NCBI GenBank assembly: GCA_046563655.1 | Contig: CM102290.1 | Location: 13,330,001 to 13,394,000, forward strand | Length of the DNA stretch: 64,000 bases | DNA from: Yuukianura sp. NJ FZ-2021 | Lineage: Eukaryota | Reading direction: 5' to 3' | Shown here: positions 1 through 60,089 of the stretch, piece by piece | How positions within the stretch are numbered: the stretch's first letter is position 1 | Layout of the letters: every line of letters begins with the position of its first letter | Program-made: the position numbers and the translations under genes | Notes under the pieces: model-generated | What the model was told of the DNA's origin: nothing | Seen by the model: only the letters and a program-made list of their open reading frames with translations | Database searches by the model: none

Positions 1-48
1 ATACGAAACGAAGCGTGAACAAAAATAAGACAAAATCGGGTTGAGTTA

Positions 49-1286
49 TTAACCTGTTTTGCAATAGTCAAATACGTCCTTGAACTCGTCACCAAGGCAA
101 TGAAATCCTTTCAGTTTCTGTTGATATTCCCCATCTAAGCAAATCCAATCCGACCTGGCATCGCAAACAAGTTGGTTGTCTTCATGATCTTCCTGTTCTC
201 GCCCAACCCGGACAGTAGACCGAGTCGAGTCCAGCAGAACTTTGAAAACGTTTTCTGGCAAGTAAGTCAAATTTCTGTTTCCCTCCAGATTGACCTCTGC
301 ATATGGACTGATCCCTTCAAAGCATCCAGGGGACAGCAACTCTGATGAAATTTGATTTGATGCCAAATTAAGTAATGTGAGAGTTGGCTGATAGGCAAAT
401 GGACTTAGCCCAATTTCCTTGACATCCGTGGAATCAAATTCAATCGTCTCCAGATATCGCAGACCTTTGAATGCATTATCCACAATTGTGGAAATTCCAT
501 GTGAAAAAAATGACAGATATTTCAAATTTGTAAAACTTCTGATGAAGGGATAAACATTGTTGGATCGACCATGTTGAATAACGATAGTCGTTGTGTACTG
601 GTGTGTGCTTGGAAATGCATCACTATTGATACTGAGGTGTTGAGTACTGCTGAGAATGAACTGAATTGTTCCAAATTTGAGTCCAGTCATCACATTTGCT
701 GGAATTGTGACTTCGTAGGCGGAGGGGCTGGAGCTTATCGTTAATTCCTCAAATATTGGGTTTGTTCCTGAAGCTTCAGATATTTGATCAAACATTTTCT
801 TGTAGTCCGTCCCTGTGGAAACTGTGCAATTGACAGTTCGCTCAAACTCGGCATTCTGTTCGCATATGCACTCCACCGGAAACGATTCTGAAGGAGGACA
901 TTCTCCACCCAAGGTTTCTATAGCAACAAAATAGCATTAAGAGGTTAAGCAATAAGTCCCGCTTTCAGAAAATCTCTCCCCAAACTTTTTTTTCACCCAA
1001 GTTTCACCCAGACTTGTTTTGTGCAAAAATGTAAATGTTTGCACCAAACTTAACGTTCAAAATGAATGAAAAAAATTCGGTTTCCAAAAATCGCCCAGGA
1101 AACTAGACTTGCCGTGATTGTCTTTTCATTTTTGCAATTTTGGGGGAATAAAAAATAAAAAGCGACTTATTGCCTAACTTGTTAAAGAAAAAACTATTTT
1201 CTCGTTAACGAACCTTGTTGTCCACCAGCTGAAACTTTTAGCACAGGAGCCAATAATACCAATAGGAACAATTGTAGCCGTTGCAT
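49..1286 (-). CDS. Secreted leucine-rich repeat protein (~313 aa), 2 exons (1286-1214, 917-49)
   Basis: Exon 1 encodes a signal peptide (MQRLQLFLLVLLAPVLKVSA). It joins in frame to ORF 49..912, which has LRR motifs (LKYLSF, LTLLNLASNQI, VNLEGNRNL) and Cys-rich caps. The only intron is a TIR element. Confidence 0.85.
910..1217 (-). mobile_element. CAAGG-TIR element forming intron 918-1213 of the LRR gene
   Basis: Termini caaggttt...gaaccttg; 9-bp TSD ttctccacc (901-909) / ttgtccacc (1218-1226); on the minus strand CAAG|GTTCGT ... GCTATAG|AAACCTTG. The interior aligns with copies at 6076 and 7134. Confidence 0.92.
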
Positions 1287-2458
1287 AATTGACTTCTCAA
1301 ATTTATATTTTGCACTTGAAATTCTGATTTAAATTTAAATTTCGTTTTGCCTCACGATTTTAGCAGCTTACTTTTCTGAACCTTACTCCAAATAAAACCA
1401 GCAAACTAATCATGCACTTTTAAAGGTTACTTTTGGATCCGTATTACATCAGCAAATATAAATAATCACATCATACACGTTTTCTATCTAAAACTAATCT
1501 TGATCACTACTTGAATTGGAGTAAGTGTATTGTTTTTAACAAAACAAGGAACAATGGTTTTCAAATTTTTGAGTGATTTCTGGCTTTTTACTGATGTCAC
1601 CTGTTATGCAATCTGGGTTCGAAGTCGGTAACTTACGTCATGTAGTCATGTTGTAACTTACCGTCATACATTACGTAACTTTCAAAAGGGTTTTGTAAGT
1701 TACTAGTTTTATCATACGTACTTATGTTAGTTACGTAACTTATGTATTTTTGGTGAAAAATACCGTAAACTTCGAACACCCTGTTTGAAATACAAATTTA
1801 GACACATATGAAAACATTCAGTTTTTCAAAATCATTTTTTCCATGTTCTACTAAAACTTTTTGGCAACTTCTTCCATTAGGTTATTAGACAACATTTAAA
1901 AAAAAACTGTTAACTTCAAGAAACATGTCAACGGTCTAAGGCGACTGGAATTTTTTTTTACAAATTTGAAAAGTGTCTTTTCAAAATAGGCAAATTATAA
2001 CTGATCTTCTGTTTTAAACAGTGACAATGCAGTGTAAAACTCAACAAAAGATCGGGATTCACCGTAAATTGGTTAGCAGAAACAGAACTGGATCCACCCC
2101 TAAATTAAGTGCATGGTTCTTGCATGACGAAAGGATGACCACCGTAATTGTTCAAATTAAACGCGTGGGTGAAAGCAAATCACGTCATTCGGCTCTCAAG
2201 CGGAGAAAAGGACTGTTTGATGTTCCAAAATGACAATTCCACCCTCTTCAAAATCCCGTTCTTAACTTTTCAGTCTTTTTAAGACTGAAGTCTTTTTAAT
2301 TTTGTTTTGAAAAATGTGACAAATTTTATACATGTTGAATTCATCTCCTCCCTCCTTGGATTCAGCTTCAATTAGGAAACTAGAAATACAGTAACTTACA
2401 CTGTAGTTCAGAGCTCAATATTGTAGTGGTGTTTAGTTGGACAAATTCTGAACGAACC

Positions 2459-2716
2459 CAAGGTTTGTTGACTTTGAATTTCTTTAACAGGTTGAGTAAT
2501 ACCTCATGTTTTTTCAATTTTGCACAAAAACAGTGTCATTCATTTCATGGTATCGTAGTCATAACAAAAAACAGCTGAATTTTCTAGATTTTACTACAAA
2601 TTTTTGGCAATTTTTGTTTGGATTGGAACCAAAATTGGTACCATTTTTTTTTGTCAACAAGGAAGGTAGTACTCAACCTGTTAAAGAATATTCATTTTCG
2701 TTGTCAAGGAACCTTG
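2459..2716 (+). mobile_element. CAAGG-TIR element, non-coding copy
   Basis: caaggtttgttgac...gttgtcaaggaaccttg, subterminal ttaacaggtt/aacctgttaa; degenerate 9-bp TSD gaacgaacc/gaacatacc. Confidence 0.8.
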
Positions 2717-5082
2717 GAACATACCCAAATTACGTCATCTCAATTCTAAAATATTTTGACAAAATGAACTAAAACGTTTTTAGCAACATTGTTGCTATAT
2801 TTAAGATTAGAGGTATGTATATCATATGCATGTGCTAACTATGCCACAAAGGTAATGTATTGGCTTAGGTAGAAATTGACAAATTGAAAAGCAAAGAGCC
2901 CCAAAACATAGATTCCATAGTGAGAAATTTACGCTACATACAGAATCAATGTAAAATTAGAAGTCAGAAGGGAAAGAAGCGAGGGACCGGAACCAAAAGT
3001 TCCAATGAAAGCATCGCTTCCTCAACATCTTTTATTCTTCATGTCCAATCTGCATCAGACAGGCTTTCATTTCACTTCTACATAAATTCCCACGGACACT
3101 TCAAAACGCTTTCCCAAATACCGAAATTAGTAATTGTTTTCGTACTGTTCCACAATCAATCTTGAAGATTGATTTTGAAGTGCTAGTTGTTCCAAACCGC
3201 ACTAAACTTTTTTCTGTGTATTCAATTGACATTGTACTATTGTCAAAAATTGCCGCAGTATTTCATTTGTCAACGGAATTTACAAAGAACGACCTAAAAA
3301 TCTTAGAGGCCAATCGAATTGCGAAGTTGTTTTTACGTTTCTACGAAAAGAAGTTGCATTTTTTCAGGTTTCTTACGCTTCCCAGTTGCATTTCTTGGTC
3401 GAGAAGAAACACAGTGTCAGTTTCTGCGTTGATTTCGAATACTAAATCATTCTCCTTATATTTATTGATGTTTACTAGAATCACTCAAAAATATTTGTAG
3501 TAAGCAACGCTTCTGCGTCGATTTTATCATCAGAAGGTGAGCAATTTAATTCCATTTGTAATAGAACACGAGTTTGTAAATAATTGTTTTCATATTTAAC
3601 AAATTGTGGTAGAAAAAAATACACACAAAATCTAAAAATTTTTTTTGTACTCAAAAGCATTAGTAATACATGTGATACATGTATACTACATGTCTAATAC
3701 ACGTGAAAAATTTCTTTTCAAATTCAAGCTGTGCGCTTCCGCTACTTGCTTATGCTCGGTTTGTATCCGATTAATTTTTGTAACACTCAACTGCACACTT
3801 CTTTAAAGTCATTTGTCGTCATTATAGTATTTAATAATACGATCCATTGAACAATAAGGCGTACATCGCAGGTTAGCTATTGTTTTTGCTCTACCGTGTC
3901 TAATAGATACTAAAAATTTATGTACAAAAGTACATGGAATTAAACTTGTTAAATGGCCATGGGCAAAGGAAACGGACGGGAAGTTTCTACAAGTGGAATT
4001 TTAACATTTCTCATTCTCATTAACATTTCAAAAATAGAAGGGGGCACTCTTCCCATAAAAAAATTTTTTTTTCATTTTTTGTCCCAAATCGATTAAAAAG
4101 TGTTTCTCACATTATAAAACATGAAATGAACAAAAAAAAAAAACTTTTTGTGAAAATTTCAAAATGGACTCAGAATTCTTCGTATCCGAAAAATAAACGT
4201 TTTTTTTTTCTTCCTTTTCAAATTTTTTGACGTTTCAAGCTTATTTCCAACCACTTACAAAAAAAAAATTTTTTTTATTGGCAGGGTCCCCTTTTGGCAT
4301 TTTTGAATCAAAAAAAATTTTTTTTTTCACTTTTTGTTCCAAACCGATTTAAAAGTGATTCTCACACTATAAAACCTGAAATGATTCTTCTATGGAAATT
4401 GGAACGCGTCGGTAATGGAGCATTTAGTGTACACTAACTTTTCAGGAATATTTAGAGGCTGGGGTTTGAATTGTTATTTGCACGCTTTTCACTTTGAAAT
4501 TAAAAAAAGCAATGCTACTGAACTTTATTGACTCGATTTCTGATGGTTTTCTTTTTAATTGTATCAGCAATAGCTGTGTCACGATCAAACCGAAAGAATA
4601 AACCATTTCATGAGCATCTCACCACAAAGCTTTTCCTTTTCTTTTACGGAATACAAAGCAAACCGTACGATCAAGTGAACTTCAATGAAAAATTGGTTCT
4701 CCATTTGCGTTTTTGTCGTAACGCAGTTTCAGAAAGTTTTAAGGATTCTACCAAGCAGTTTCAAATGCTGTCTTAAAAAAGGATAATAAAATTGGAAGCG
4801 CTTTTTTGTTGCCATTACTCGGCGCCTCAACATGGATGAATTAAGAACTTTGAAATAGGAAAAGTTAAATGTAATGGAAGTTAGTAATTCTTTGTTCTGT
4901 TTTGGACGCTCCGAAATTTACCATGCATAGCGTAGCGTAACCAACCTCAACATATGTCAATACATTCTGTACGGTTTTGAATGTTCCACCATTTTGGTTT
5001 TGGTGTTCAGAAAGAATGAGAAGAATCAATTTGTCATCACATGTTACCGTAGATTTCCAACTAGTAACCCAGGGGTGTACTA

Positions 5083-5540
5083 CAGTAGAGACTCTCAAAT
5101 TGTAACTCCCTTTTTACTTTTATGGCGGAACACCGCAAAACTGAAGTACTAAACTTGAAGCCAGTCAACTGCTGACACTTTGGGTTGTCCCAAGGTTCGT
5201 AGAAAAACAAAACTTTCTTTCTACACCAGGTTGTCCAATAACTCCATGTTTTGAGAATTGTTAAAAAATTCGCAAAATATTTCCCCCGTTACTTGTCTAT
5301 GGTAATTATTTATATGTTGTGTAGTGTTGTGTAGTGTCCTAATGGAAATTACAGGGAAAAAATTATTTTTGCAAGATTTTTCAAAATCCCGAGTAATTGG
5401 GCAACCTGTTGTAGGAATACATTTGGGTTCTTAAGGAACCTTGGGTTGTCCTATACGATAGCTGGGATGTAATCCGTTTGCGGTAAATGTTAATCAAAAC
5501 AAACCAATCACAATGAGTTGCAATTCGAGTGGATCTACTG
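5083..5540. mobile_element. CAGTA-type MITE (Tc1/mariner/pogo-like, TA TSD) interrupted by a CAAGG element
   Basis: ta-cagtagagactctcaaattgtaactc...gagttgcaattcgagtggatctactg-ta; ~197 bp after removing the insert, similar in size to the copies at 28363, 30129 and 32947. Confidence 0.8.
5191..5443 (+). mobile_element. CAAGG-TIR element, 8-bp TSD subfamily
   Basis: caaggttcgt...ttaaggaaccttg; TSD ggttgtcc (5183-5190 / 5444-5451); subterminal ctacaccaggttgtccaataactc shared with the copy at 59869. Confidence 0.85.
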
Positions 5541-5619
5541 TATTTGGAAATCTACGGTAATCTAAAAGAAGTTAAATCCAAAGTTCTTAGTCACCGTATC
5601 TGTTTATTTTCTGTTGAAG

Positions 5620-8600
5620 ATGGTGGTGATTCTACAACAAACAACAACGGATAACGGAAAACGATTTGTGTCAACACTCGTCGAGGACCAACAAGGCACA
5701 GTAACGACGAGTCGATTGGCGGGAAATTTCAACAGCACTTTGACTAATTCAGTGTCCGAGCAGAGCGCAATTTACAAACAAAGAATTGACAGTTTATTTG
5801 GATGCCCAAAGGGTCCACCTCCAACTACAATCGTCACCACAGCAACTCCATTCAGAAAAACGTTTAATCTGCCCAAATTTCTGCCGTTAACGAGCATGTC
5901 AAGCATTAAGGCCGACATTGTTACCTCAGAAGACGAAGGTTATCAACGAATTGACGAAGATGAAGTTAATTCATCTCTGCTTCCGGATTCTCTGAACTTT
6001 GACACCGGGGTATCCAGAACTAACTTTCCAGATTCTAGTCCTTGGAGGAACAGAACTTACTGTAACATGACCAGCCAAGGTTCGTAAACAAGAAAATAGT
6101 CTTTTGCTTTAACTGGTTAGGCGATAAGTCGCTTTTTTATTTTTTCATCCCAAAATGTCAATAATAAAAAGACAATCACGGCTAGTCTCATTCCCTGGAC
6201 AATTTTTGTAAATCAAATTTTTTTCATTCATTTTGAACGTTCAGTTTAGTACAAACGTTTACATTTTTGCACAAAAAGGGTGATAAACCACTCTGTGTGA
6301 AGAAAAAGTTTGGGAGAGATTTTCAGAAAGCGGGAGTTATTGCCTAACCTGTTAAAGAAATTATATTTTGTTGCTATAGGAACCTTGATGACCAGCAGCC
6401 ATTTTGCGACTGATATTCGGCGACAACTGGACGATGAAGTGAAACTTCCAATTTCATCTAACGGAATTCTTCAGTTTCCAGCACAATACTTGGGGTCCGT
6501 TGGATTGCAAGGGGCGACCGCCACTTTGCAGGATCTGCAAAGTCCCCTGCGATCTTTGTACTTAAACTTTTTAAAAAACAGGAACATTTCCTCCGGTCAA
6601 CTGTCTATAGCTTCAGAGGGACTTCAGTTTGACTGTAAAACTCTACGCCTAATCAGTCCGTTTTCGACAATTTCTGTTTGGGCGGCTATTAAATTTGTTG
6701 TCCGCGGTGATCCGCCTATGGAATGTGCCTTTATGCCACTCATTTCCGATCCGGAAGGACAAGACAAGCGAAGACTTTTTGGAAAAATGGATTCTGACCT
6801 TGGACATGCCTATTTGACTTCCTTGAGAAGTGCGAACCTAACGGGATTCCGAAATCCGCCGATCTTTGCCTGTGTGACACGACAAGGAGTGCCTCAACGG
6901 TCCGAATGTGTTGGATTTACATGCAAGTCGGCTGAAGATGCTATCGTTATCGCTGCAAATTTGTATCAACATCTATTAGTCAATGAACTGAAGACACACA
7001 AGGAAGGAGAAAGTGGCTACGGCAGTTTGACCAACACTTCTCCGATGACAACCAATCAAAATTCTCCAAACAGCAGCAGTCGAGAAGAAGTCAACCGTCC
7101 ATTTTCTTCAGCATCTTCTCTATTGACTCCAACCAAGGTTCGTAAACAAGAAAATAGTTTTTTCCTTAACAGGTTAGGCAACAATTCCCGTTTTCTATTT
7201 TTTTCCTCCAAAATTTCAAATACAAAAAGACAATCACGACAAGTCTCGTTTCCTGGGCAATTTTTGTAAATCGAATTTTTTCCATTCCACTCATTTTGAA
7301 CGTTCAGTTTGGTACAAACGTTTACATTTTTGTACAAAAAACAGCGATAAACAACACTGGGTGAAACTTGGGTAAAAAAAAAGTTTGGGGAGAGATTTTC
7401 TGAAAGTGGGACTTATTGCCTAACCTGTTAAAGAAAAATATTTCGTTGCTATAGGAACCTTGGACTCCAACTAATGCTTCCGGAAGCACATCTTTTGAGT
7501 CTCGGAAGCCAGACAAGATTAAAGACGCAGCACCTCCTTTGCGACCTCCGCGTCGTCATAGAAACGACGCAGCATCGAGCCGAGGATGTTCGAAGGAATA
7601 CAATTCTGACGACTCTTGTTCCGTTGTTCTCAAGGTGCCAATCCAGAGAAGAAAGTCGTTCAAAACTTACAGTCATCGCTACCAGCGTTCGAATCCCGCC
7701 AAGCTCAAAAAACGTGTCAAAATTTCAACGCCACCAGACCATGGACCTTCTACTGACACAATTGAACGAATCTTGGACAAGCTGGTACATCCAAGAAGCA
7801 GGTCACTCAATGACCTCAAACCTTCTTATAAAAAGTTAATTTTAAAGTTAGCTTTGATTTTAACCCACGATCATCGGTCTAAAAACAAAGAAAGTCCACG
7901 GAAACGACACGGTCGGAATACAAACAAACCGGCAGTGTCCAAGTTACGCAACCAAAGAGAAGCAGAACAAGTTGGAAATCTAGGTAAACCATTGGGCAAA
8001 ATGGCGCTAGGAAAAGGCGGAGCTTCACCATTGCGGACTAATCCGGGGACAGTATCTGCTAATCCTATGGTCAAAGGAGAAATAGCAGGTCAGAGTTCAA
8101 GGTCAACCAAAAGTCGGCATGATTTGTCAATTTGCAGTGGATGTGTCTGTAACAATTGCTCAGACAAATGCTACTGTTCTTTACCGACGAATACTTGCAA
8201 GTCTGCGGGTTCGTCATCTGCGAGCCAAGGTTTGTAAAACAAGAAGATAATTTTTTTTCTTCAACAGGTTAGGCAGTAACTCGAACTTTTTAAATTTTGT
8301 TAAAAAATAAGCATAACTTAGTGCATCGTGCCTTCCAATATCTATAATCATTGCCATATGGCAATGATTTATAAGAAATCAACTGGGATTGGAGGAAAGT
8401 TGGAGGAAAAAATTGTTTGAATTCGAGATTTTTCGAAAACAAGACTTGTTGCTTAACCTGTTAAACAATGACTATTTCGTTGCTGTAGGAACCTTGTCTG
8501 CGAGCAGTACTCCATGTCGACGGGATGGTGGCAGTATCCAGTCAAGCAAGAAATTAGGACTGTTGAAGCCAAGGGACACTGGTTGTGGTTACATGTGTTA

Positions 8601-11098
8601 CGAAACGGAGAGTTGCGCAGAGAGTGAGAAATGTTACTGTTCTCTCCAAGGTGTCAAATCCAATGGTCTCAAAGTGTACAACATCAATTTGGACACAGAG
8701 ACTTCCGATACAGACACAAACTCATATGACCTACAGTCATTCAATCACAGTTCAACAATTCCCAACATTCATTGTAATGACATTGCGGGTCAGCGGGGTC
8801 AAGGGTCAACCCCCATTAAAATCCTGGCGTACAATCCAGGAAGACGACATTCCAGTGACTCTCAAGTGTCAAGGGAGATGAGTGGACTTGTACATAGACA
8901 AAATTCAAATGGAAATGGACCGCCGTCTTCCAAAACGAAAAATGAAACTACTCTGGTAAAGTCAACTTTGAATTTCAGTTTCATTTCGAAATTTTAATAA
9001 TTATGCAGTCCAAAAATTTCAAGATTTTCAAAAACTAAAAATGTTGGGGAAGAACTAGGTTAATACACGACAAATCAGAACGGTTCTGCATCAATTCAAC
9101 TTGAGAGCCACACGTTTTCCCAACTGCAGCCTTGAAATACATTTTGTGAAATGATTTACTTTCAGTTTTGCTTTCGTTTTTTGAAGTACCGTAAAACTTC
9201 TAATAATCGTCGGGTCTCTATGATACTCCGCGGGGTTCAACTCAGACTTAGAATTGAACGAGGGGATAAATGTTGAGAGTTTGAATAAACGGCCGGACGT
9301 TTATTAGGAGTTTTACGGTACAAAACATAGCCATAGGTTGCTATAGAACTCATTATTTATAATAATGCGCTAACAGGTTATGCCATAACTCCATTTAAAA
9401 AAAAACACGAAAAAAACAACAACTTTTGTACCAATTTTGTTGATTTTCACAATAATCTTTTGAATTTTTTTAATTTTCATCTTAGTGAGTCATAGTGTTT
9501 CTACAGAAGGACTTTTGGAAAAAGTAAGGATTAGGCTAACAAATTCACTACAGTGCATTTTCCTTTTTTATGGAAATTTAAAAAATTCCAGAATATTGAT
9601 TTTTAAAAACAGCATCACACCTTCTAACTTTCTACAGAAGGACTTTTGGAAAAAGTCAGGATTAGGCTAACAAATTCACTACAGTGCATTTTCCTTTTTT
9701 ATGGAAATTTAAAAAATTCCAGAATATTGATTTTTAAAAACAGCATCACACCTTCTAACTTTCTACAGAAGGACTTTTGGAAAAAGTCAGGATTAGGCTA
9801 ACAAATTCACTACAGTGCATTTTCCTTTTTTATGGAAATTTAAAAAATTCCAGAATATTGATTTTTAAAAACAGCATCACACCTTCTAACTTTCTACAGA
9901 AGGACTTTTGGAAAAAGTCAGGATTAGGCTAACAAATTCACTACAGTGCATTTTCCTTTTTTATGGAAATTTAAAAAATTCCAGAATATTGATTTTTAAA
10001 AACAGCATCACACCTTCTAACTTTCTACAGAAGGACTTTTGGAAAAAGTCAGGATTAGGCTAACAAATTCACTACAGTGCATTTTCCTTTTTTATGGAAA
10101 TTTAAAAAATTCCAGAATATTGATTTTTAAAAACAGCATCACACCTTCTAACTTTCTACAGAAGGACTTTTGGAAAAAGTCAGGATTAGGCTAACAAATT
10201 CACTACAGTGCATTTTCCTTTTTTATGGAAATTTAAAAAATTCCAGAATATTGATTTTTAAAAACAGCATCACACCTTCTAACTTTCTACAGAAGAACTT
10301 TTGAAAAAAGTCAGGATTAGGCTAACAAATTCACTACAGTGCATTTTCCTTTTTTATGGAAATTTAAAAAATTCCAGAATATTGATTTATAAAAACAGCA
10401 TCACACCTTCTAACTTTCTACAGAAGGACTTTTGGAAAAAGTCAGGATTAGGCTAACAAATTCACTACAGTGCATTTTCCTTTTTTTATGGAAATATTAA
10501 ACGTTTGAAACGGACAGACCGACAGTACTTTTTACAAATTAGCACCTTCAATTCTAATCAACAACTCGAAGTTATTTTCTTGGCAACGGCATAGGCCCTT
10601 CTTCGTCTAAACCCCATAATTATAGGTTTGTAAATTCCTTTCATCGTTAAATTCCAGGAAGATGAAATGCATCCTAAAGGTCGAAGTTCACCAAGCCGGC
10701 GGCAGCGTAAGAAAGTTCTTTTGCTGAGTGATTGCTCAACGTCGTCCAGAGAAGACTTGTTGATGGGCCATGACGATTGTTCAGCACAACGTCAGTATAA
10801 CAGACCCAGCAGAGTCCTTGGTCACATTCCAGAGGATGACGATTGTAGCCTTACTTTCCCAACGGACAATTCCATCCACTCAGTTCAAGTGCTGGACATG
10901 AAGAAAACGGCAGAAATTGAAGCAATGTTTACAACTCTCAACATTGGGCAAAACCGTACCGTAGTCGATGGAAATCCAAGAATTGGGAGAGATCAGGAGG
11001 TTGTTCCTATACGCAGAAAATCATGCGCTGCACTCAAAACTGTTCGCTACTCTTCAGTTACAAGTGACTTTCAAACGTCTTTAGGTTATCTTCCATGA
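5620..11098 (+). CDS. PTB/PID-domain protein (~966 aa); exons 5620-6079, 6380-7137, 7455-8229, 8489-8955, 10658-11098
   Basis: Exons join in frame (2901 nt). PTB-like core FPAQYLGSV...WAAIKFV...ECVGFTCKSAEDAIVIAANLYQ, Cys motifs (SDKCYCS, SEKCYCS), C-terminus SLGYLP. Confidence 0.8.
6076..6387 (+). mobile_element. CAAGG-TIR element forming intron 6080-6379
   Basis: Perfect 9-bp TSD atgaccagc (6067-6075 / 6388-6396); CAAG|GTTCGT donor; CTAAC at 6344-6348; GCTATAG|GAACCTTG acceptor; spliced product MTS-QGTL-MTS. Confidence 0.95.
7134..7462 (+). mobile_element. CAAGG-TIR element forming intron 7138-7454
   Basis: Perfect 9-bp TSD gactccaac (7125-7133 / 7463-7471); same splice signals as the 6076 copy; spliced product LTPT-KEPW-TPT continues into the RPPRRHRN frame. 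Confidence 0.95.
8226..8496 (+). mobile_element. CAAGG-TIR element (divergent interior) forming intron 8230-8488
   Basis: Perfect 9-bp TSD tctgcgagc (8217-8225 / 8497-8505); CAAG|GTTTGT ... GCTGTAG|GAACCTTG; spliced product SAS-QGTL-SAS. Confidence 0.93.
9189..9318. mobile_element. TA-flanked MITE (CCGTAAAACT...AGTTTTACGG)
   Basis: Terminal inverted repeat ccgtaaaacttctaataa / ttattaggagttttacgg with TA on both sides, in an intron. Confidence 0.75.
9332..9475 (+). mobile_element. Left-end fragment of a CAAGG/CATAGG element
   Basis: Starts cataggtt; ataatgcgctaacaggttatgccataactcca...caattttgttgattttcacaataa aligns with the copy at 31974; no right TIR found. Confidence 0.6.
9498..10494. repeat. 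131-bp tandem repeat, ~7.6 near-identical copies, intronic
   Basis: ctacagaagg/ctacagaaga recurs at 9501, 9632, 9763, 9894, 10025, 10156, 10287 and 10418. Confidence 0.97.
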
Positions 11099-14594: not shown

Positions 14595-15431
14595 CGTTGA
14601 TGCTGCAAATACTGCCTCCTGTTGCTACTGCAAATACTTCTGTTAGGATATTGTACGGAAGTGTGTCAAAGGTCAAACTATTTTTGTTGAAAAACGCAAG
14701 ACAACAAAGTTTCATTCCAGATTTGTTCCATGGAAGCGTTGACCCCGTCTGCAACTACTATTTGTATAAAAGTTGTCTGAATTGCTATAAAATGAGTGAA
14801 TCGAATCAGGATTTCTGGATGCTGTGAAGAGGGCTTTGGACCAAACCCTTTGGTAAACAAATTAGGAAGTCTGCGTTCTGTAATCACTTGAAGTTGTAGT
14901 CTCTCTTCACTTGTTTACTTAACTTGGCAAGAGAGATAAAGATAAGCGAAGCGTCAATCGTCAATTGAATAAAATGGCAATACTTGTCAGCTGTTTTCCA
15001 GTCCGGCTTGAGCTTTTATATCTGCTGGTTTTGAGTTAAAACTTCTTTGGTTAGCCGCCTGCTGCAGAGTCGCTTGCTCACACCGGAGAATACCCGGGTA
15101 TTTAAAGGCATCAAGGTCCAGAGTAAACTCTTGCTCTAAATTTTGCATAAGCTCAATACTGCTTTTGTTCTTTCTTCGTCTTGGTTGGTGTAAATAAGAA
15201 GCGAAAGGTATTTTTTTTGTTTCTATTTGATTAAAATCGTAATTTGTATTGTTGTAATTTACTTCACTTAATTTTAAGGAAGACGATTGTCCCGGACGCT
15301 GGTCGCTTCTCCATCTATTCAAAACTAACCATAACTTTGGCCAATACGAACGACTGATTGATATTCCTGAAATCTGAAAATGGATTAACGTTTCGGGTTC
15401 GAGTAGAAGACATCGACAATAACGCAACGTG

Positions 15432-16939
15432 ATGAACTCCGGGCGACGTGTTGTCGTGACTGGTCTTGGACTAGTGACACCAGTCGGCACTGGAGTGGAT
15501 TTCGCATGGCAACAGATCATCAACAAGAAAACGGGAATAAGAGCACTCAAAGGCAAAGGATACGAGAAACTGCCATGTCGAATAGGAGGCATGGTCCCCA
15601 GAGTCCCAAATACGGAAGGTTGGTTGTTAATTGATCATAAAAATATTGAATACGTTGCATTATCGCCTTATTTTTTTAGGGAACTTGGACTTGGATCAGA
15701 AATTCAGCGAGGCCGATCGACGATCTTCATCCGTTGCTACGCTGTTTGCACTCGTTGCGGCAGAGGAGGCTGTCAGATGTAGTAAATTGAACCCAGCGAC
15801 CAAGACTGATGATCAACTGTGTCGTATTGGAGTTGAAATTGGCATGGGACTACCGGATTTACAAGATGTCCAAGATACTGGGAAAGTCCTGAACGAAAAC
15901 GGCTACAATCGCGTATCACCCTACTTTATTCCAAGAATACTTCCTAACTTAGCAGCAGGACAGATCAGCATGAAGTATGGATTCCAAGTATGATATCAAG
16001 CTGCTAGCAAGCGGTGTAACTCAGGATGATTGACAACGTTTCACTTACTTAATTTTCATTTTATTTCAAAGGGACCAAATCACTGTACCTCCACAGCTTG
16101 TGCTACAGGAGCCCACAGCATTGGTGACTCTTTTAATTTTATCCGAAACGGATACGCTGATGTCATGATTTGCGGTGGCACTGAAGCCTGCATCAATCCT
16201 CTTTCAATTGCCACGTTTTGCCGTCTTAGAGCGCTGTCAACAAAGTTCAATGCCGATCCAGAGAGAGCTTCCAGGCCTTTTGACTCCAGCCGAGATGGGT
16301 TCGTAATGGGAGAAGGCGCTGGAGTGTTGATACTGGAGGAGCTCCAGCATGCCATCGCCCGTAATGCCAACATTTATGGCGAAGTTCTGGGATATGGCTT
16401 ATCGGGTGATGCCCATCACCTTACTGCTGCCCGTGAAGATGGAAAAGGTGCTTACAGAGCTATGAAACAGGCACTGGACATGGCTGGAGTAAGTCCTACA
16501 CAAGTATCCTATGTCAACTGTCATGCCACTTCAACACCTATAGGAGATCGTGCTGAAATCACCGCCCTGAGGAAACTTTACGATTCACCTAATGTAAGAC
16601 CACAATCGTTTTAAATTCTTTCAAAAACGTTGCTCCGAAACTAATTTTTCTCAACTTCAGCTCAATGGAGTTGCAATTTCTTCAACCAAGGGGAGCCATG
16701 GCCATTTGTTAGGAGCAGCAGGCGCAGTAGAATCGATCTTAACAATACTGGCTTGCCATACTGGAGTGATACCACCTTCGTGCAACATACTCAGCCTTGA
16801 CGAAGAGTTTAGAAATCTAAACATCATAACTGATGCTAACTATCAAGTCAATACCCAAACACCAATCATAGCACTCAAAAATTCATTTGGTTTTGGAGGA
16901 ACAAATGCTAGTCTTTGTTTTTCGTCTTTCCGTTCCTGA
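15432..16939 (+). CDS. OXSM: 3-oxoacyl-ACP synthase (KAS II type, mitochondrial FAS), 4 exons
   Basis: [26 protein letters not shown]...[35 protein letters not shown]. Confidence 0.95.
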
Positions 16940-17062: not shown

Positions 17063-20496
<3,434 letters not shown>

Positions 20497-24806: not shown

Positions 24807-27800
24807 ATGAGGAATTACTTGTCACGATGTTGGCCTCAATTGCTATGGTTTCTGGTACTTGTCAACGCTCAGCAAAGGGAAAATACGTTTAGGACTCCAT
24901 TCGGAACGTCACGAGAAGCCAACAGTGTAAATGCACCATTCGTTCCGAATTTTGTACCCCAGGATGAATCCAACTTCGGCACTAATACCGGTGGAAACTT
25001 TATTCCTCGGGATCGAGATTTTAACAATTTTGACAACTCAAGAGACGTGCCATTGTTTCCAGTGACACAACGTAATACAAACGGGTTTACCAACTTTGGT
25101 ACTACTCCGAATCGAAATTTTGGTTTGGGTAGTAATCAAAGTCCACGATTAGACTTTGGTGACGGACAATATCCGTTTACAAGTCCAGAAGAAAAGGAAT
25201 GTCCGCGAGGCTGGGACACGTTTCGACAAAGTTGCTACCGATTTGTCCGGTCTCCGATACACAAATGGGAAGATGCTAAACGAAACTGTCAGGTATTTAG
25301 GACAAGATGGAATGAAAGATGGATAAGAATTACTATTAAACTGGATTTCTTGTGTTGTTGCAGGCTTACGGAAACGGAGCTGACCTGCTTAGTGTTAACA
25401 CCATTGAAGAACATACTTGGATTTCTAGGAAACTGACTTCAATTGACCCTCAGCATCGTCAGTGGTACATGTCTGGTAGACAAACTGCTCCTGGAAATTG
25501 GGTAAACGGCGATTCATCGCATTTGTCCACATTAGATCAAGTATTTCTCCAGGATCAACCGTCGGTTGTATCCAATGTATACAATAACTACCTCTCATAC
25601 AGGTAACCCTGTCGTCATTTTGGTTTCGGTTTTAAACACAAGTCGATTAACAAAGTTTTTCCCGATTTTAGTTACTCGGAACGGAGAAAGTTGTGGGGAC
25701 TTCTTAAGGTATCTGGAGAAGATCTGCTCTTGTATATCTGCGAAATTCCATTGGCCCTTGTACCTTACATTGACAAAAGCCTTGAAGACAGAAATTTTGA
25801 ATATGGAATTGAAGTCGAAGATGTACGAAAGATCCCGAGAGGACCCTATTTCATTCAAGAACCGAAGAGTACTGTGTTCGATCTCTCCAGGAACACTCAA
25901 AGTGCCTATGTGTCCTTGAGGTAAGGATTTGAATTAGAACAAGTATTTATTTATACTAAAAAATAAAAAAAATTTTGATTGTGAAGCTGTTTGGCGGATG
26001 GATGGCCAGCACCGACTTATGAATGGTACAAGGAAGAGTACATCAATCAAACACTTTCTGCCAAGTACTTGGATCCACTACAAAACTCAAAGTATACCAT
26101 CAGTGGAGGCATGCTCATCATCGACTCGCCTCAACAAATTGATGACCGTGGAAATTATCACTGTGTTGCATCCAATGTCTTCGGTTCAATCATTTCCGAA
26201 ACCGTTTCAATCTCTTTTGGATACATCGGAGAATTTATTGAATCTCGGGATGCTGAAGTTGCGAGTCAGTATTGGGGAAAGGCCATCTTTTGTGATCCGC
26301 CAAATCATTTCCCACGTAAGGATTTACCGAAAAATCGCTTAATTTAAACCAGAATGCAGATATTTTTTTTTACGTTTTTTTCACAATCCTAGGTGTGCTG
26401 TACTCCTGGTCTCGACGATACTTTCCGAATTTCGTGGAAGAAGACAAACGTGTATTTGTGTCATATGATGGAAACTTGTACATTTCGTCGGTTGAAGTTA
26501 GTGACAAAGACGAGTACATTTGTCATGTCCAGAATACGGTTGCCAGTAACGGCCGGACTGGTCCAACTTTTTCACTTCAAGTTATTCCAGATTGTAATGA
26601 ATGATCGACTATTCCATGTACTCTATGTATTCAGAATTGTACTGAAACGTTTTTGTTTGCCTAACAGCTAACTACCAGCAGCTGAAATTTCCAAACAACT
26701 TTCCAAAGTCATTTCCAGAGTCTCCGGCTGCTGGAGAAGACGTTCGTTTGGAATGTGTTGCTTTTGGATAGTAAGTTTTTGTTTATACAGTAGACCCTCT
26801 CATTGCGAAACCTTTAGCTCCGCCTCCCCTGAAGGTGGGAAAGCGTTAAACTTAAATTTTTGAAAGGATTGCTCGCAACATGTCTCATGCTTATTATTAA
26901 TTTTTGATTTTTTTCCGCTTAGTCCCGTGCCATCTTACAATTGGACTCGGAAGGGAGCCCCACTTCCTCGAAATGCTGTCCTTTCAAACTATAATCGAGT
27001 CTTAACTATTGCAAACGTTCAAGTGGAGGATCAAGGAGAATACATTTGTCATGCTGCCAACAACCGCCTGTCTACTGAAGACAGTGTCACCCTCAGTATC
27101 CAAGGTTTGAATTTTCTGAAAAAGAAAATGTTTAGTAGGTTTCGCGCAAGTATTAACGTCAAATTATTATTGAACTTTCTTAGCTGCTCCGAATTTCACA
27201 ATTCCACTCGGGGACAGGCACATGGACGTTGGAGACAATCTAACGTGGACATGCGAAGCTTTTGGAATCCCGGACGTATCGTATCAGTGGTACAAGAATG
27301 CAAAGCTCTTGACCCCAGAAGGACTCTTCCATGAGTTTGGTCCGCGATATGTTATGCGGGACAATGTACTGAACATCTACTCATTAGATGCCGAACGGGA
27401 TGCTGGAATGTATCAATGCAGAGCAAATAACTCCCTGACTGCCAAATTCTCTACCGGGCAACTTAGAATTCTTAGTAAGAAACTCTAACATGATTTTCTG
27501 TTTATTACAAACCTATACTAACTAACCATGCGTGATGTTTTTAGCAATTCGGCCGAGTTTTAAGAAGCGACCGTTAGCAACGGAAACGCTTGCTGCTGAG
27601 AATGGAAATGTTACGATCAAATGTGAACCGGAAGCTGCTCCACGTCCATCTTTTGTCTGGCGGAAGGACGGAAACAGAATTGGAGCCGAAGGGCGGCGTC
27701 GAATTCTGCCAAATGGAAGTTTACTTATCAATCCAGTTTCGAGAGAAGACGTAGGAATCTACACATGCGTTGCCAAAAATATTCTCGGAAGTGATGAAAG

Positions 27801-30503
27801 TTCTGGACGTCTCTCAGTGTTACAAGGACCAAACCTTGTTGAACTACCAGCAGAAACAGAAAATTACACCATTGGATCACAACTATTTCTGCGATGCAGA
27901 GCCGAAGCAGATCCATCACTTGACATCGCTTATGTTTGGAAACTGAATGGAGTTCGGTTGGATGACATGACACATCGTGTTCGTGTTGATCATAGAGCAG
28001 GATATGTTGAAATTGACAACGTGACTCTGGCGGATAGAGGGGATTACGCATGTGAGGTAAATACATGGGTTGGAAATTCAAAGGCCGTGACACACGTTCA
28101 CATCATGGGACCTCCTGGACCAGGTATGCTAATCATTCCTTACTTGGCATCTAAGTTCGAGTAGTTGTTGATACTTTTCATTTGTTTATTAGTTGGCGGA
28201 GTTCATGCAGAAGTTTTGAGCTCTCGGACTGCACGGATTGCCTGGACAGATGGAGCAATGAATGGTGCACAAGCATACCTATACACGATTCAGGGCAAGA
28301 CACAATGGGATACCACTTGGAAAAACATAGTAGAAAGTAATCATATCTCTGCAATTCATCTACAGTAGGTCTTCTCACATTGCAACTCGTTGTGATTGGC
28401 TGGTTTGATTGACAGCTCCCGTAAGCTTACAGATTATATTCGGCATTCTCCAGGTATTGGACTACCCAGAGCGCCAACAGCTGATTTGTTTGAAGTTAGC
28501 CTCCGTTGAAAATACCTTAGGGTTTACGGTGTCCCGAGAACAAAATGTTGCAATTTGAGAGGGTTTACTGTAATTTAACTTCAATAGTTCAAAGTCTTAC
28601 GTGAATATGTTATATGTAGACGTTGAGCCCGACCGCGGTGGGGTTGATCTACGAATAAGAGAAAACAGCCGGAAAGAGAAGTTGGTAAATGTGTTGTCAC
28701 CTTGGTCAACATACGAATTTCGTATCTTAGCTGCCAACAAGCATGGATATGGCACACCTTCAGCTCCGTCACCACAAGTTCGTACGCCTTCTGACAGGCC
28801 GTCTACTTATCCCAGAAACATTCGTGGTGGTGGTGGAAAAACTGGAACTTTAACGATTCTTTGGGATGTAAGTTCGTTCAACTCACAGTTAATTTGAAAT
28901 TTGTGCTTAATCGAGTCATTGTTTTCACAGCCTCTCCACTATAGAGATCATAATGCACCAGGAATTTATTACAAAGTGTTCTGGAGACTACATCGACAAT
29001 ATGGAGAAGAGCCTTACCAGACTGCCACTTTGAAGAAATGGGGAAATGTTGGCTCGCATGTCGTCAATATTCCGTCAACACATTACTATACTCTGTATGA
29101 CGTCAAAGTTCAGGTAAGTGCTGAAGAATATTGACGTTGTTGTTTGGATGTTGATAAGGCTGAAAGTGTACACTTGATTTGTAGGCATGGAATGACGAGT
29201 GTATTCCAGATGATCTAAGAGGTTGTGGTCCAGAGTCACCTCCAGTTACGATCTATAGTGCAGAGGACATGCCACAAGTTGCTCCGTCACTAGTAACACC
29301 GCTTCCATTCAATTCTACTGCAATCACTGTCACTTGGACCCCAGTGGACGAGTCACGCGAGAAGATGAGAGGGAAGCTGATTGGTTATCGAGTAAGATCC
29401 AATTGACAAATAATCTTGAAATTGAAAGTTCTGAGCTTTAAATTAGTGTACTTTTGTATATTTTTGATTAGCTTCGGTACTGGCCCAAGATTGAAACAAA
29501 CTTGTACGATCCAGAAGCACTCAACTACTTGAGTCGTTCAACTAAACCACAAGCTCTAATTGTTGGTCTCTTGCCAAATACGTACTACTATGTTCAAGTA
29601 ATGGCTTATAATGCTGCTGGTCCTGGGCCAGCTAGTGAACCACAATTTGGTAAGTCTCGTTTTATACTAGTTTTACATGCGTTGGTTCAAGAGCAATTGA
29701 GCATTTTGTTTTGTACAGAGCGGACACTGCGAAAGGCGCCACAGAAGCCACCAATCAACGTGGAAGTGTCGTTAGTTAATCCTTCGACTATCAAAGTAAC
29801 TTGGCGCTATGTCGGCACAACTGCACAGGAGGAAGCACTGTCTGGTTTCAAGGTAAACGATTTCCTAACGTTATAAACGTTGAAAAGTGACTCCTAACGT
29901 TGAAAAGTGTTAAACTTGGTTCAGGTTCGAGTTTGGGACGCAGATCAAGACATGTCAACGGCGAAAGACACATTCGTCAATTTTGTGGACCGTTCATTGG
30001 AACAGGAAGTGACGGGACTACTTCCAGCGAAGAAGTATATTGTCCGAGTACTCGCATATTCTCCGGGTGGTGATGGAAAAATGTCTCCACCTCAAGAAAT
30101 CATTCTCGGTTAGAAAAAATACTTACTACAGAGTATCCTCTCTTTTAGCAACTCGTTGTGATTGGTTCGTCGGCCGGAGAATACCGAAACCTTCCAATCA
30201 TGGGCGTTGAACCGCCTATAAGTTTATAGTTGCTTTTTAAAGTTGAGCGCTCTCCAGGAACTTTGGTTTTTACTATGTTCCGGCTAGGAGGAAGGAATTG
30301 CTAAATGAGGGGTTCTTCTGCATTTTAAAATATTGGTTTCGTAACGCGAAATTCTATGTTAATATTTTCAACACAATTTGCTGTTTACAGGGGACCCTCA
30401 AGCTCTCAAAAACGGAAATTGCGGAACAGCCAGCTCTTTTGTTATTGTTTGGACTCTGCTAGCCTTTGTGCTTGGTCAATCAGCGCCTTCAATGTCGCTT
30501 TAA
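24807..30503 (+). CDS. Cont: Contactin (signal peptide, C-type lectin, Ig domains, FN3 domains, GPI signal), multi-exon
   Basis: CPRGWDTFRQSCYRF...WEDAKRNC lectin; repeated D.G.Y.C Ig motifs; FN3 motifs (LSPWSTYEFRI, LLPNTYYYVQV); hydrophobic tail VIVWTLLAFVLG ending at TAA 30501-30503. Confidence 0.93.
28363..28570. mobile_element. CAGTA-type MITE in a Contactin intron
   Basis: ta-cagtaggtcttctcacattgcaac...gttgcaatttgagagggtttactg-ta. Confidence 0.8.
30129..30320. mobile_element. CAGTA-type MITE (degenerate) in the last Contactin intron
   Basis: ta-cagagtatcctctc...gcaactcgttgtgattgg (shared with 28363)...gaggggttcttctg-ca. Confidence 0.65.
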
Positions 30504-33241: not shown

Positions 33242-36200
33242 CTAATCCAGGATGACAATCTCGTCACAGAACATGGATTCTGGAGAGGTGGGGGTAGTGT
33301 CTGGAAGTGGTGAGAAGATGATCTCGTCATCATCAGGTGCCAGTGGATCCTTCAAGCACAATAACATCCACGCCTCCACCTTTGACAAAAAATCCCCAAA
33401 TATTAGCTCAACAGTTTCCAGTATTCCAGTTTTTGTTCTACATTGTACTTATACATACCTTTCGGTCCATCGTAGCGTTCTTTGGCTCAGCTTGTACAAA
33501 CTTCTCAGGAACAAAAAGCTCACCATGATCTACTTCAACATGAAGCTTGAAAGAATTCATTGTCCAGGAACGATTCCCACAAACTTTGCAGGTATATCTG
33601 TAACAGAAATGCAAGTACTAAAATGAAAAGACAAAGTTAGTAACAAAAGTAAATAAATCAAATACCGATGGTAGTTGAGATGTTGACGCAAATGGGTCCT
33701 CATATTTTCCGCAGATTTGGTTCTGTACGTGCCACACTGACAACAGGCATACAGAGACGGTATTTTTGGCAAAGACGTAGACGGCAAAGTTTGTTTTCGC
33801 CTGTTGGCTGGTGATGGTTTTAACTTTGTAGGTGTTTTGGGATTCGGTTGAATTGATTTCACTGGTGATGATGCTTTGGTCACTACAGTCTCAGGAACCA
33901 CATTGACTTCGTTCTCATGCAAGTAGTATATTCCACGAAGATGATCGCGTGAATTCACTCGTCGCCAGATCGGTAGTCGAAAGTTTTCGTCTCCCAGCTC
34001 AGTCCTGGATATTCACAATTCAGAATTGAAATAACAAGAAAAAATTTCATTTTTTTAACAAATTCTGTTTACCGAGAGAAGAAAACCAAGAAACGACCTC
34101 CTTCGCCTTCAGGCTTCCAGCACTTTTTTGACGTCACATGCTTCCCTAGTTGAAAGATGCTGTCCGAATGAAATGTGCAAGAGTCACACATGAATTGGGA
34201 CTTGACTTTGTGAATTGAACGAGCATGGTCCTTCGCCACCGTCCAGTTTGACAAGTTCAACTTGCACGTTAGGCATCTCCACTGCCCTGAACCTTTTGTA
34301 CCCTCATCAGTCCCAGTACCGCTGTAAATATCCAGAATCATAAGGTTCTAGTTAAGTTAAGTCCAAAAATTAAGAAAGCGAAAAGCGAACACTAAACTAA
34401 AAATACATACCGTTTACTAGCACCAGCTTCGTCTTCAGTGCCGCGAATTACAAAGTGATAAGGTCGCAGGCCTGGATGCTTGTCGACCAAATGCTTGTCC
34501 ATGAAATTGGTACGAATAGTGATGAAATCACAGTGTGGACATTTGAGTAACTTTGCTCCATGCAATTTGAGATGAGTGCCTAATTTATCCACGGGGACTG
34601 TGTAGAGAGGGTTTGATCCTACAAAAAAAAAACACAAATTATTACGTAACAATTTGCAACATTTTAAATGAATGTAAAAATGCGTCTTCTTACGTGTACC
34701 ATCCAACAATTGACAATGAGGGCACATGTATGTGTCGTATTCAGAATGAAGGGCTTTCATATGTGCTCTGAGCATCGAATCGTCCACTGTGATTTGAGCA
34801 CAACTTGGTACGCTACACACGTATCTGAACTGAGCTTCAACAAACTGCGGCAGTGTTTCTTTGGCTGTCGCAGAAACAACTCTGAAAGTAAAAACAACAG
34901 TAAACACCTTAAATTTCGTGACCTAAGGAACACAATCACGCAAGTCAGTATTTAAACTTACGCCTTAGCATTATGTGTACTCCCAGCCCAGTTCGTCATT
35001 TTGTCAAACATCATCTCTTTCCTTTCCAACCAAGGAACTGAATTGACCGTAGCTTGAGCAGGTACAAGTGTAGTTGAACCTTCTTCCTCAGCCCATTTGT
35101 GGAGATTCAAATGCCGTGTCATGTTAGTTCGTACTTTGGTGGAGTAGGAGCAAAGAGCACAGTGTACTTCTGACCTGTGTGTCCAAACAGATAGAATTAC
35201 ATTGTTAAACTCTGTTAAAGATACTGCTTAAGTTATGAATTAGCATTTGACTAAACTTACAACAACGTGCTGGAAGGCGGAATGTCATCGATTTCATTAG
35301 GATGAAACTGTATGCGTGGAACATAAACCAATGGATTCTTCTGAATAAGGTTGAAATCAACTGGATTTGACAGTATGTCTTTCGGGTACCAAAGCCCATC
35401 ACACGATTTCGGTAAGTTGCAGTGAGTACTTTTGAAAATCATTGTGACGGCACTGTACTTGTGATAAGACTGTAAAGCAGAATAAGTTAGGATTAGAAAA
35501 TTCAAACTGTTCGTCACATTCACAATATTACTGAAGTACAATTTTACCTTCAAATGTTTTTTCATCTCAGTAGCATTACGGCCTTTGTATGAACAAAGAG
35601 CACACCAATTGTTGGCTTTCCCATGAAGATTGATGTGTTCAAAGAACGAGGCTGGAGTTAGGTAACGCCTTCCACAGTGTGGACAAACATGACCAATCTC
35701 TGGGTTGAAGAATTTGCATGACATGTGATGATGCACTTTCAGCAATTGCAAAGTGAGGCTAGAAAATTCACAACCTATATTTGCGCACCGGTACAAATCC
35801 GTCCCTGAAGAAAAAAAAACAAATAAATAAAGTTAGTACTGTCTTTAGTATTGATTTTTTTAAATACTAGAATTAAATACTAGAATACAAAAAAAATTAG
35901 ATATTGAGAAATTAGACAACCTTTTTAAGAAATATAATTCGGTTGTCAAGGAACCTTGCTTACCTTCGAGATCAACCATCAAGCCAATGTCAGAATGTGG
36001 ACTTGCTGGACAGCTATGACTAGTAGATGGCGGATTACTAACAGGAGTTTGGCTGTGAACCGAAGCACTAGGTGTTAGGACCGTGGATGAAATGGAACGT
36101 GGACTGGCCAACGGCGTTTGAGGAGAACGTGTGCTTCCAGCAGCAGCAACGCTATTTGAAACCGACTGCACAACTTCTTCTGTAATTTCATATTTCTGTG

Positions 36201-59868: not shown

Positions 59869-60089
59869 CAAGGCTCCTCGACAACCGAATTGTATTTCCT
59901 ACAACCGGTTGTCCAATAACTCAGGATTTGCAAAAATTTTGCTTGAAACAATTTTCTTCCCCCAATTCAAATTGCTGTACATAAAAAAAATTACCATAGG
60001 AAAAAAGATTTTCAAATTTTTTTAAAGTGAAAGGCATCGAGTTATTGGACAACCTGGTGTAGAACAAAATTTTCTGTTTACGAACCTTG
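59869..60089 (-). mobile_element. CAAGG-TIR element, 8-bp TSD subfamily, in the putative Mnt intron
   Basis: Minus strand caaggttcgtaaacagaaaattttgttctacaccaggttgtccaataactc...gtcgaggagccttg; TSD attcaatt/atccaatt. Confidence 0.85.

Follow-up and report, generated by a model that had tools for sequence, protein, structure and literature searches.

How can a gene carry three copies of a transposable element inside its coding sequence and still encode what appears to be a complete protein? The question is raised by a 64-kb stretch of animal DNA (contig CM102290.1, positions 13,330,001 to 13,394,000; G+C content, 35-44%), referred to here as the window, in whose coordinates all positions below are given. 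The gene is a springtail orthologue of the "PID domain-containing protein" (the PID gene), and the element, typified by the copy at 6076-6387, is a miniature inverted-repeat transposable element (MITE). Very probably, it is a non-autonomous cut-and-paste MITE of a springtail that acts as an introner, being spliced out between a donor 4 nucleotides (nt) from its 5' terminus and an acceptor 8 nt from its 3' terminus (+4/-8) and leaving a footprint of seven codons.

The 312-nt copy at 6076-6387 has the terminal inverted repeat CAAGGTTC and GAACCTTG and lies between two copies of a 9-nt sequence, the whole region 6067-6396 reading ATGACCAGC, CAAG/GTTCGTAAAC ... TTGCTATAG/GAACCTTG, and ATGACCAGC again (slashes mark predicted splice junctions). 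An independent repeat search detected the same direct repeat at 6067-6075 and 6388-6396 (100% identity) together with inverted arms (91%) at the two termini, 6076-6086 and 6377-6387, and 34-nt arms in subterminal position, so that the element and its duplication, as delimited in a preliminary description of this locus, are borne out both by the sequence and by that search. Across the family, the terminal arms measure 11-12 nt (91-92% complementary) and the subterminal arms 26-37 nt; the target-site duplications match at 9 of 9 positions at 6076, 7134, and 8226 and at 8 of 9 at 910. Inverted termini and a duplication of fixed length, the marks of a cut-and-paste transposon, are both present. 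Duplications of 9 nt are typical of the Mutator-like and Merlin superfamilies. The elements are short (253-329 nt), and their longest stop-free stretches span 39-93 codons, as expected of non-autonomous copies. No transposase family was detected among the 23 window frames scanned against Pfam, no autonomous partner with the same termini was seen within the 64 kb, and comparison of the whole window with Rfam gave no known RNA family at the gathering score.

About nine copies or fragments of the family were found within the 64 kb with an nhmmer profile. Full copies, recognized by BLAST and by the profile, occupy 910-1217 (minus strand), 5191-5443, 6076-6387, 7134-7462, and 8226-8496, and sister or partial copies were detected in the same way at 2459-2716, ~31986-32224, 35910-35958, and 59869-60089 (minus strand). 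Several similar copies are thus found at nonhomologous positions, as in introner families. The copies at 910, 6076, and 7134 are 87-88% alike, and the copy at 8226 is only ~64% like the other exonic copies in its interior, with identical termini. The 5'-terminal motif CAAGGTTCGTAAAC, with up to 2 mismatches allowed, occurs 7 times versus 0.48 expected, a number reached in none of 100 shuffles.

Four of the copies lie in coding exons, three in the PID gene (6076, 7134, and 8226) and one, at 910, in a gene encoding leucine-rich repeats (the LRR gene), and all four are in the sense orientation. In each of them, a GT is found 4 nt inside the 5' end (AAG/GTTCGT; GTTTGT at 8226) and an AG 8 nt inside the 3' end (TTGCTATAG/G), with CCTAAC ~30 nt upstream of the AG and a T-rich stretch after it. 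The order of signals in the 3' repeat is TTGCCTAAC (with the branch-point-like CTAAC), a pyrimidine-rich stretch, and TATAG/GAACCTTG. When the GT and AG dinucleotides near the element ends were enumerated, +4/-8 proved to be the sole pair in all four copies that keeps the frame. Splicing at these sites is predicted to retain 4 + 8 + 9 = 21 nt, namely, CAAG, GAACCTTG, and one copy of the duplication, and this in-frame arithmetic, put forward in the preliminary description, holds at all four exonic copies. Read-through of an unspliced element would meet a stop within 2-43 codons in each case.

Scripted splicing from the window coordinates, GT(+4) to AG(-8), gives a single 834-codon frame in the PID gene, containing MTSQGTLMTS, TPTKEPWTPT, and SASQGTLSAS, and yields ...LLAPVLKVSAGGQ-QETL-GGECPP... 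(...KVSAGGQ-QETL-GGECPP) in the LRR gene. The four peptides listed earlier, MTS-QGTL-MTS (6076), TPT-KEPW-TPT (7134), SAS-QGTL-SAS (8226), and GGQ-QETL-GGE (910), were thereby reproduced. Depending on the phase, the 12 retained bases are predicted to encode QGTL, x-RNL-x, or KEP(W/C); the second of these products had been overlooked in the preliminary description, as had a competing GT at +8, use of which would leave 25 nt. Its assertion that the 12 bases create a stop only in the phase that ends in TG followed by A was confirmed by enumeration of all flanking bases. In all four cases, the whole predicted intron is a copy of the element with its ends tied to the element ends, as is characteristic of introners, although at this point the introns are deduced from sequence. 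Such an element, when located in a coding exon, is most likely removed as an intron, leaving seven extra residues; we infer that the spliceosome uses exactly +4/-8 and that the proteins carry tolerated 7-residue insertions.

The ability to be spliced looks like a property of the inverted repeat itself, because two subfamilies whose interiors are only ~64% alike retain common termini and the footprint, and the +4 GT and -8 AG are likewise found in sister subfamilies located outside genes. In the mechanism proposed here, a MITE of 271-329 nt with imperfect terminal inverted repeats of ~60 nt would insert with a 9-nt duplication, its 5' repeat (CAAG/GTTCGT) bringing an exonic AAG and a GT donor and its 3' repeat bringing the branch-point-like CTAAC, pyrimidines, and an acceptor. 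Since both the AAG that would end the upstream exon and the G that would start the downstream exon come from the element, the creation of an intron would need nothing from the target. After sense insertion into a coding exon, splicing at +4 and -8 would remove all but 12 nt of the element; these 12 nt and the duplicated 9 nt would add 21 nt, or 7 codons, so that the frame would be retained in every insertion phase. The sole exception would be a TGA stop, formed when the element follows codon position 2 and the duplication starts with A. The insertions are presumed to be tolerated; their sites fall in linkers of low conservation or follow a probable signal peptide. The element RNA is predicted to fold into a long hairpin that pairs both termini (-91.7 kcal/mol; z, -7.1), which could bring the splice sites together or hide them.

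The preliminary description regarded the footprint as a searchable signature. At the DNA level, a search for CAAGGAACCTTG gives false positives, because this sequence is present unspliced at 2705 and 35947, where it is the natural 3' terminus of sister subfamilies. For the same reason, these two occurrences were ruled out as spliced or retro-copied footprints.

The coding sequence of the PID gene is divided into five blocks, at 5620-6079, 6380-7137, 7455-8229, 8489 to ~8997, and ~10634-11098, the last of which carries the conserved C terminus ...SLGYLP; the three elements make up the first three predicted introns. The best relatives of the protein, which are 56-59% identical to it in the second block, come from Allacma fusca, Orchesella dallaii, and Folsomia candida, and the host, judged by these matches, is a springtail other than any of the three. 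Searches for same-species proteins in a set of 5.8 billion, restricted to near or longer lengths, gave no match above 66% identity. When the proteins of the three named springtails were aligned to the window with tblastn, they matched the five blocks colinearly, with 32-61% identity, to the C terminus and in frames 1, 1, 3, 1, and 2. Introns of the predicted lengths, 300, 317, and 259 nt (0, 2, and 1 modulo 3), bring the frames of the first four blocks into register exactly as required. With its downstream part intact, the PID gene is by all appearances alive. In the LRR gene, which is encoded on the minus strand, the exon next to the copy at 910-1217 carries the Pfam domains LRR_5 and LRR_8, the copy sits in an open frame of 295 codons, and the footprint lies just behind an apparent signal peptide (judged by eye).

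For comparison, 24 orthologous loci were retrieved from metagenome contigs with a profile of the PID block. One of them (L001, on a 49.8-kb contig) matches the spliced window protein at residues 1-784 in a single unbroken frame. Another (L002) is clearly interrupted only once, by an ordinary GTAAGT...TTGCAG intron at residue 278/279, where the window gene has none. Introns are absent from both loci at residues 153, 406, and 664, the positions of the three element-derived introns, and because both are uninterrupted at all three sites, these introns are gains on the window lineage. The nhmmer profile of the element matched none of the 24 orthologous loci, and its 3' end, TTTYGTTGCTRTAGRAACCTTG, was found in no stretch of the metagenome scan. 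Protein alignment revealed the footprint motifs in none of six orthologues, the regions around the sites being too variable for this to be decisive. The three sites fall in variable, gap-rich linkers, where the local alignment identity is 0.13-0.21 against a median of 0.36, a difference to which the insertions themselves contribute; their low-conservation percentiles (6, 24, and 23) are likewise partly circular, as the inserted residues count as unconserved.

A direct view of the insertion site is provided by four public DNA runs, of which X1, X2, and X4 come from one sample and X3 comes from another study; their contigs were mapped on positions 1-10500. A 1,590-nt contig from X4 (record 28), with a single-copy depth of 15.6, aligns with 6388-7160 over its letters 1-767 and with 5223-6066 over its letters 768-1590. 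It joins 6066 to 6388 and lacks exactly 321 nt, which is the element (312) and one copy of the duplication (9). Its interpretation as a spliced transcript was rejected, as the contig runs 23 nt into the next predicted intron and extends upstream of the ATG, and splicing would have removed 300 nt, not 321. The contig is a genomic unoccupied allele, so that alleles with and without the 6076 insertion coexist in the material sequenced. The empty allele also lacks the 21 nt, by which the proposal passes one of the two refutation tests set out in the preliminary description. Intron gain is thus seen both in this contig and in the uninterrupted L001 and L002 loci, and the earlier claim that the seven residues are absent where the element is absent agrees with the 321-nt difference and with the lack of the motifs in the six orthologues. 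The occupied allele, for its part, is not an assembly error, because the 5' boundary of the element is bridged by contigs from X3 (record 22, covering 5895-6245 with 0 differences) and X2 (record 15).

The same runs bear on the size of the family. Over every copy, the summed contig depth rises at least 10-fold (four runs, 1-10500), and the X2 run contains 40 contigs that all terminate precisely at 7134 and have dissimilar, AT-rich flanks. Together, these observations indicate many copies elsewhere, mostly in AT-rich DNA, with the boundary that the inverted repeat predicts. By far the most abundant type in the runs, far above the exonic subfamily, is the sister subfamily represented by the copy at 2459-2716 (3' end GTTGTCAAGGAACCTTG): the bin 2451-2800 has a summed depth of 64,877 in X1, versus ~200 in neighbouring bins, and many loose contig ends coincide with 2458/2459 and 2716/2717. 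Two variants were noted at other copies. Around 8226-8496, among the X4 records listed, record 29 ends at 8205 (with 322 letters unplaced) and record 30 begins at 8509 (the initial 126 letters being unplaced), so X4 may carry a different allele at 8205-8509. At 1012-1119, inside the copy at 910-1217, contigs from X1, X3, and X4 have 28 other letters in place of 106 nt, which is an internal length variant of that copy or its relatives.

Several points weigh against uniform splicing at +4/-8 and against the novelty of the added residues. The use of the splice sites is read from sequence, the runs examined being DNA. The donor, GTTCGT or GTTTGT, departs from GTATGA and GTAAGA in the two host introns that were inspected, and those introns are ~67-82 nt long versus 259-317 nt for the predicted ones. 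The predicted RNA hairpin would bury both splice sites in its stem and might hinder splicing or help it. There are only four exonic copies, just one of which is in the KEP phase, and for these four the uniform sense orientation gives p = 1/16 at best. At the three PID-gene sites, the orthologue alignments are loose and by themselves do not prove that the seven residues are new, and the empty site is represented by one contig from one run. Finally, all four copies have a second GT at +8 (TTC/GTAAAC), which in combination with the -8 acceptor would add 25 nt and break the frame.

This second donor (GTAAAC or GTAAAA) is the basis of an alternative that we consider unlikely, in which the elements are removed as introns, although not uniformly at +4/-8: with the +8 donor or cryptic exon-internal sites partly used, the 21-nt footprint would belong to one isoform, and the other isoforms would be frameshifted and probably degraded. 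Copy-specific in-frame alternatives do exist, with a net addition of 0 nt at 8226 (from an exonic GGG/GTTCGT) and 3 nt at 6076, and the +4 donor is atypical at its positions +3 and +4 when compared with the two inspected host introns. However, the +4 donor matches the textbook consensus MAG/GTRAGT at 7 of 9 positions and the +8 donor at only 4 (our own count), no other donor-acceptor pair is common to all four copies, and the gene, which is conserved in its downstream blocks as far as the C terminus, would be destroyed by an extra 25 nt.

Very unlikely, in our view, is the possibility that the insertions are not spliced at all and represent recent, disruptive, truncating events (null or hypomorphic alleles or pseudogenes), the in-frame footprint being an accident of 4 + 8 + 9. 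One insertion is polymorphic and could be a young deleterious allele, splicing is predicted here from DNA sequence, and a net addition divisible by three has a prior probability of 1 in 3. Such an accident would nevertheless have to account for three insertions in one gene whose downstream blocks remain open and 32-61% identical to the orthologues, for an older copy in the LRR gene within an open frame of 295 codons, for four of four sense-oriented copies with intact GT, AG, CTAAC, and pyrimidine tract, and for termini retained in two subfamilies that have diverged to ~64%. For this family, an RNA-mediated spread (through reverse splicing or intron transposition) or a segmental duplication of introns, as has been suggested for some fungal introners that lack inverted repeats and duplications (PMC9860276; here and below, statements on published work rest on excerpts of the cited articles), is scarcely credible, since the similarity reaches 4 nt and 8 nt past the predicted splice sites into the exon, each copy has inverted termini and a site-specific 9-nt duplication, copies also occur outside coding sequence (2459, 5191, and 59869), and the empty allele lacks the element and exactly one copy of the duplication. 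Splicing at +4/-8 of an element that moves as DNA is therefore retained as the preferred interpretation, and the corresponding features are collected in the table.

Table. Coordinates of the host gene, the element copies, and the associated duplications in the 64-kb window
Feature	Position	Strand	Details
Host gene, springtail orthologue of "PID domain-containing protein"	5620..11098	+	Recognized by protein matches
Target-site duplication copy 1, ATGACCAGC	6067..6075	+	Exonic, codes for MTS
MITE/introner copy, 312 nt	6076..6387	+	Predicted intron 6080-6379, 300 nt, GTTCGT...CTAAC...TATAG
Target-site duplication copy 2, ATGACCAGC	6388..6396	+	Exonic, codes for MTS again
Second exonic copy, element 7134-7462, 329 nt	7125..7471	+	Duplication GACTCCAAC on both sides; predicted intron 7138-7454, 317 nt
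Third exonic copy, element 8226-8496, 271 nt	8217..8505	+	Duplication TCTGCGAGC on both sides
Predicted intron of third exonic copy, 259 nt	8230..8488	+	GTTTGT...GCTGTAG
Exonic copy in LRR gene, element 910-1217	901..1226	-	Duplication GGTGGACAA and GGTGGAGAA, 8/9; 3' end AAACCTTG; predicted intron 918-1213
Upstream related copy	5191..5443	+	Interior 56-64% alike; duplication GG(G)TTGTCC; ends CAAG/GTTCGT ... CTTAAG/GAACCTTG
Sister-subfamily MITE, intergenic	2459..2716	+	Termini CAAGGTTTGT ... GTTGTCAAGGAACCTTG
Further family copy, 221 nt, noncoding context	59869..60089	-	Termini CAAGGTTCGTAAAC ... GTTGTCGAGGAGCCTTG
Truncated family terminus (...GGTTGTCAAGGAACCTTG)	35910..35958	+	Antisense in short intron of minus-strand gene

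Some of the copies outside coding sequence have contexts of their own. The copy at 5191-5443 has the same orientation as the PID gene, lies 177 nt upstream of its ATG, and has GT at +4 and AG at -8; it may be located in the 5' untranslated region and, if the transcript starts further upstream, may be a fourth element-derived intron. The sister copy at 2459-2716 is flanked by a degenerate duplication, GAACGAACC and GAACATACC, that matches at 7 of 9 positions. On the minus strand at 35946-35975, a truncated terminus (CAAGGTTCCTTGACAACCG...) directly follows a GTAAG donor in an intron of ~175 nt (...VDLEG/GTAAG/CAAGGTTCC...), so the intron could be of old element origin, or the element could have inserted into an intron that was already present.

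At 9337-10456, within the large intron that separates blocks four and five of the PID gene, there is a tandem array with a 131-nt unit, in which an identical 57-residue frame recurs every 131 nt. Summed contig depth peaks in this array, reaching 327,246 in X1 versus ~200 elsewhere, which suggests a satellite-like repeat of very high abundance. The neighbouring genes are ordinary and, by their Pfam domains, encode a beta-ketoacyl synthase (15423-16939), an FtsJ/Spb1-type rRNA methyltransferase (17063-20075, minus strand), and an Ig/fibronectin-III protein (25985-29876). The two introns inspected in the synthase gene are ~67-82 nt long.

Introners are the best-supported source of new spliceosomal introns, and the element described here very probably belongs to this already known class of intron-generating transposons. 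Its apparently new aspects are the springtail host and the 21-nt footprint. The case is remarkable for the lineage of the host, for an insertion that still segregates, and for three gains in one formerly single exon; the advance lies in host range and detail rather than in concept, as the principle of an in-frame footprint has already been published. The preliminary description stands with regard to the anatomy, the 21-nt arithmetic, the predicted peptides, and their absence without the element, and it is not new in principle, since introners that add codons are on record (PMC9860276). Three independent element-derived introns interrupt what forms one exon in a related springtail locus, and one of them is absent from an allele in the sequenced material; this points to recent or ongoing intron gain in a hexapod. 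There is somewhat more reason to accept than to doubt the broader proposition that this is an active introner family making new introns in the springtail, with at least one of them segregating and each exonic insertion leaving a 7-residue scar (xyz-QGTL-xyz, xyz-KEP(W/C)-xyz, or x-RNL-x). If the family acts genome-wide, it would be the first hexapod case, springtails being mainly soil-dwelling hexapods. It would then offer a population-level animal system for dating and counting intron gains and peptide micro-insertions and for examining selection on them, among other things the predicted loss of insertions that create TGA. Self-contained splice signals would make insertion independent of the target sequence at the cost of a fixed 7-residue insertion, which in turn would be a simple marker of old gains in proteomes.

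Among animals, a 2022 survey recorded introners in only two groups, with copepod and Oikopleura metagenome-assembled genomes in its supplementary table (PMC9860276), and a 2025 paper includes the sea urchin Strongylocentrotus purpuratus and Styela clava among its newly validated taxa (PMC12130899). Both surveys describe introners as rare in animals and strongly biased to aquatic organisms (PMC9860276, PMC12130899). Springtails are listed with 0 introners, namely, Folsomia candida and Orchesella cincta in the 2022 supplementary table (PMC9860276) and Allacma fusca, F. candida, and O. cincta in the 2025 tables (PMC12130899). The species of the window is none of the surveyed springtails, its PID protein being at most 59% identical to theirs. 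Titles and abstract openings revealed no earlier report of introners in Collembola or of springtail intron gain, file 13 of the PMC12130899 supplements lying outside this search. With the known animal introners, the window element shares transposon-driven intron gain in an animal genome.

The closest published parallel, drawn from anatomy and not from element sequence, is found in the marine alga Aureococcus, where introners that contain both splice sites add 4 nt and an 8-nt duplication, i.e., 12 nt or 4 residues (Gozashti et al. 2022, PMC9860276, legend to Fig. 2F/G); most introner families leave the mRNA length unchanged (PMC9860276). As far as the excerpts go, the Aureococcus and springtail elements are both DNA-transposon-like and carry both splice sites inside the element, both leave (in the springtail, by prediction) element bases and the duplication in the mRNA in a multiple of three and so add amino acids, and in both cases the comparison was made against a gene copy without the element (PMC9860276). 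In the window, 12 nt and a 9-nt duplication would give 21 nt and 7 residues, and the element, unlike that of Aureococcus, also contributes the exon bases that border the intron, AAG ahead of the donor and G behind the acceptor.

The introners of Micromonas, Symbiodinium, and Polarella are likewise MITE-like, with duplications, often with inverted termini, and with many whole new introns per genome (PMC9860276; 10.1101/2020.10.14.339549; PMC11282704). In the excerpted accounts, these rely on the duplication or the flanking exon for at least one of the two splice sites, as in the Polarella family that borrows a splice site from the duplication (Roy et al., 10.1101/2020.10.14.339549; reviewed in PMC11282704), so that the mRNA length is unchanged and the target must supply AG/GY. 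The window element, in contrast, would need nothing from the target and would pay for this with a 7-residue insertion. It resembles ordinary MITEs in its small size (271-329 nt), the lack of a long open frame, the inverted termini, the duplication, and the many copies mostly in AT-rich flanks. It differs from them in carrying a donor, a branch-point-like motif, a pyrimidine tract, and an acceptor within its termini, which would permit its survival inside coding exons.

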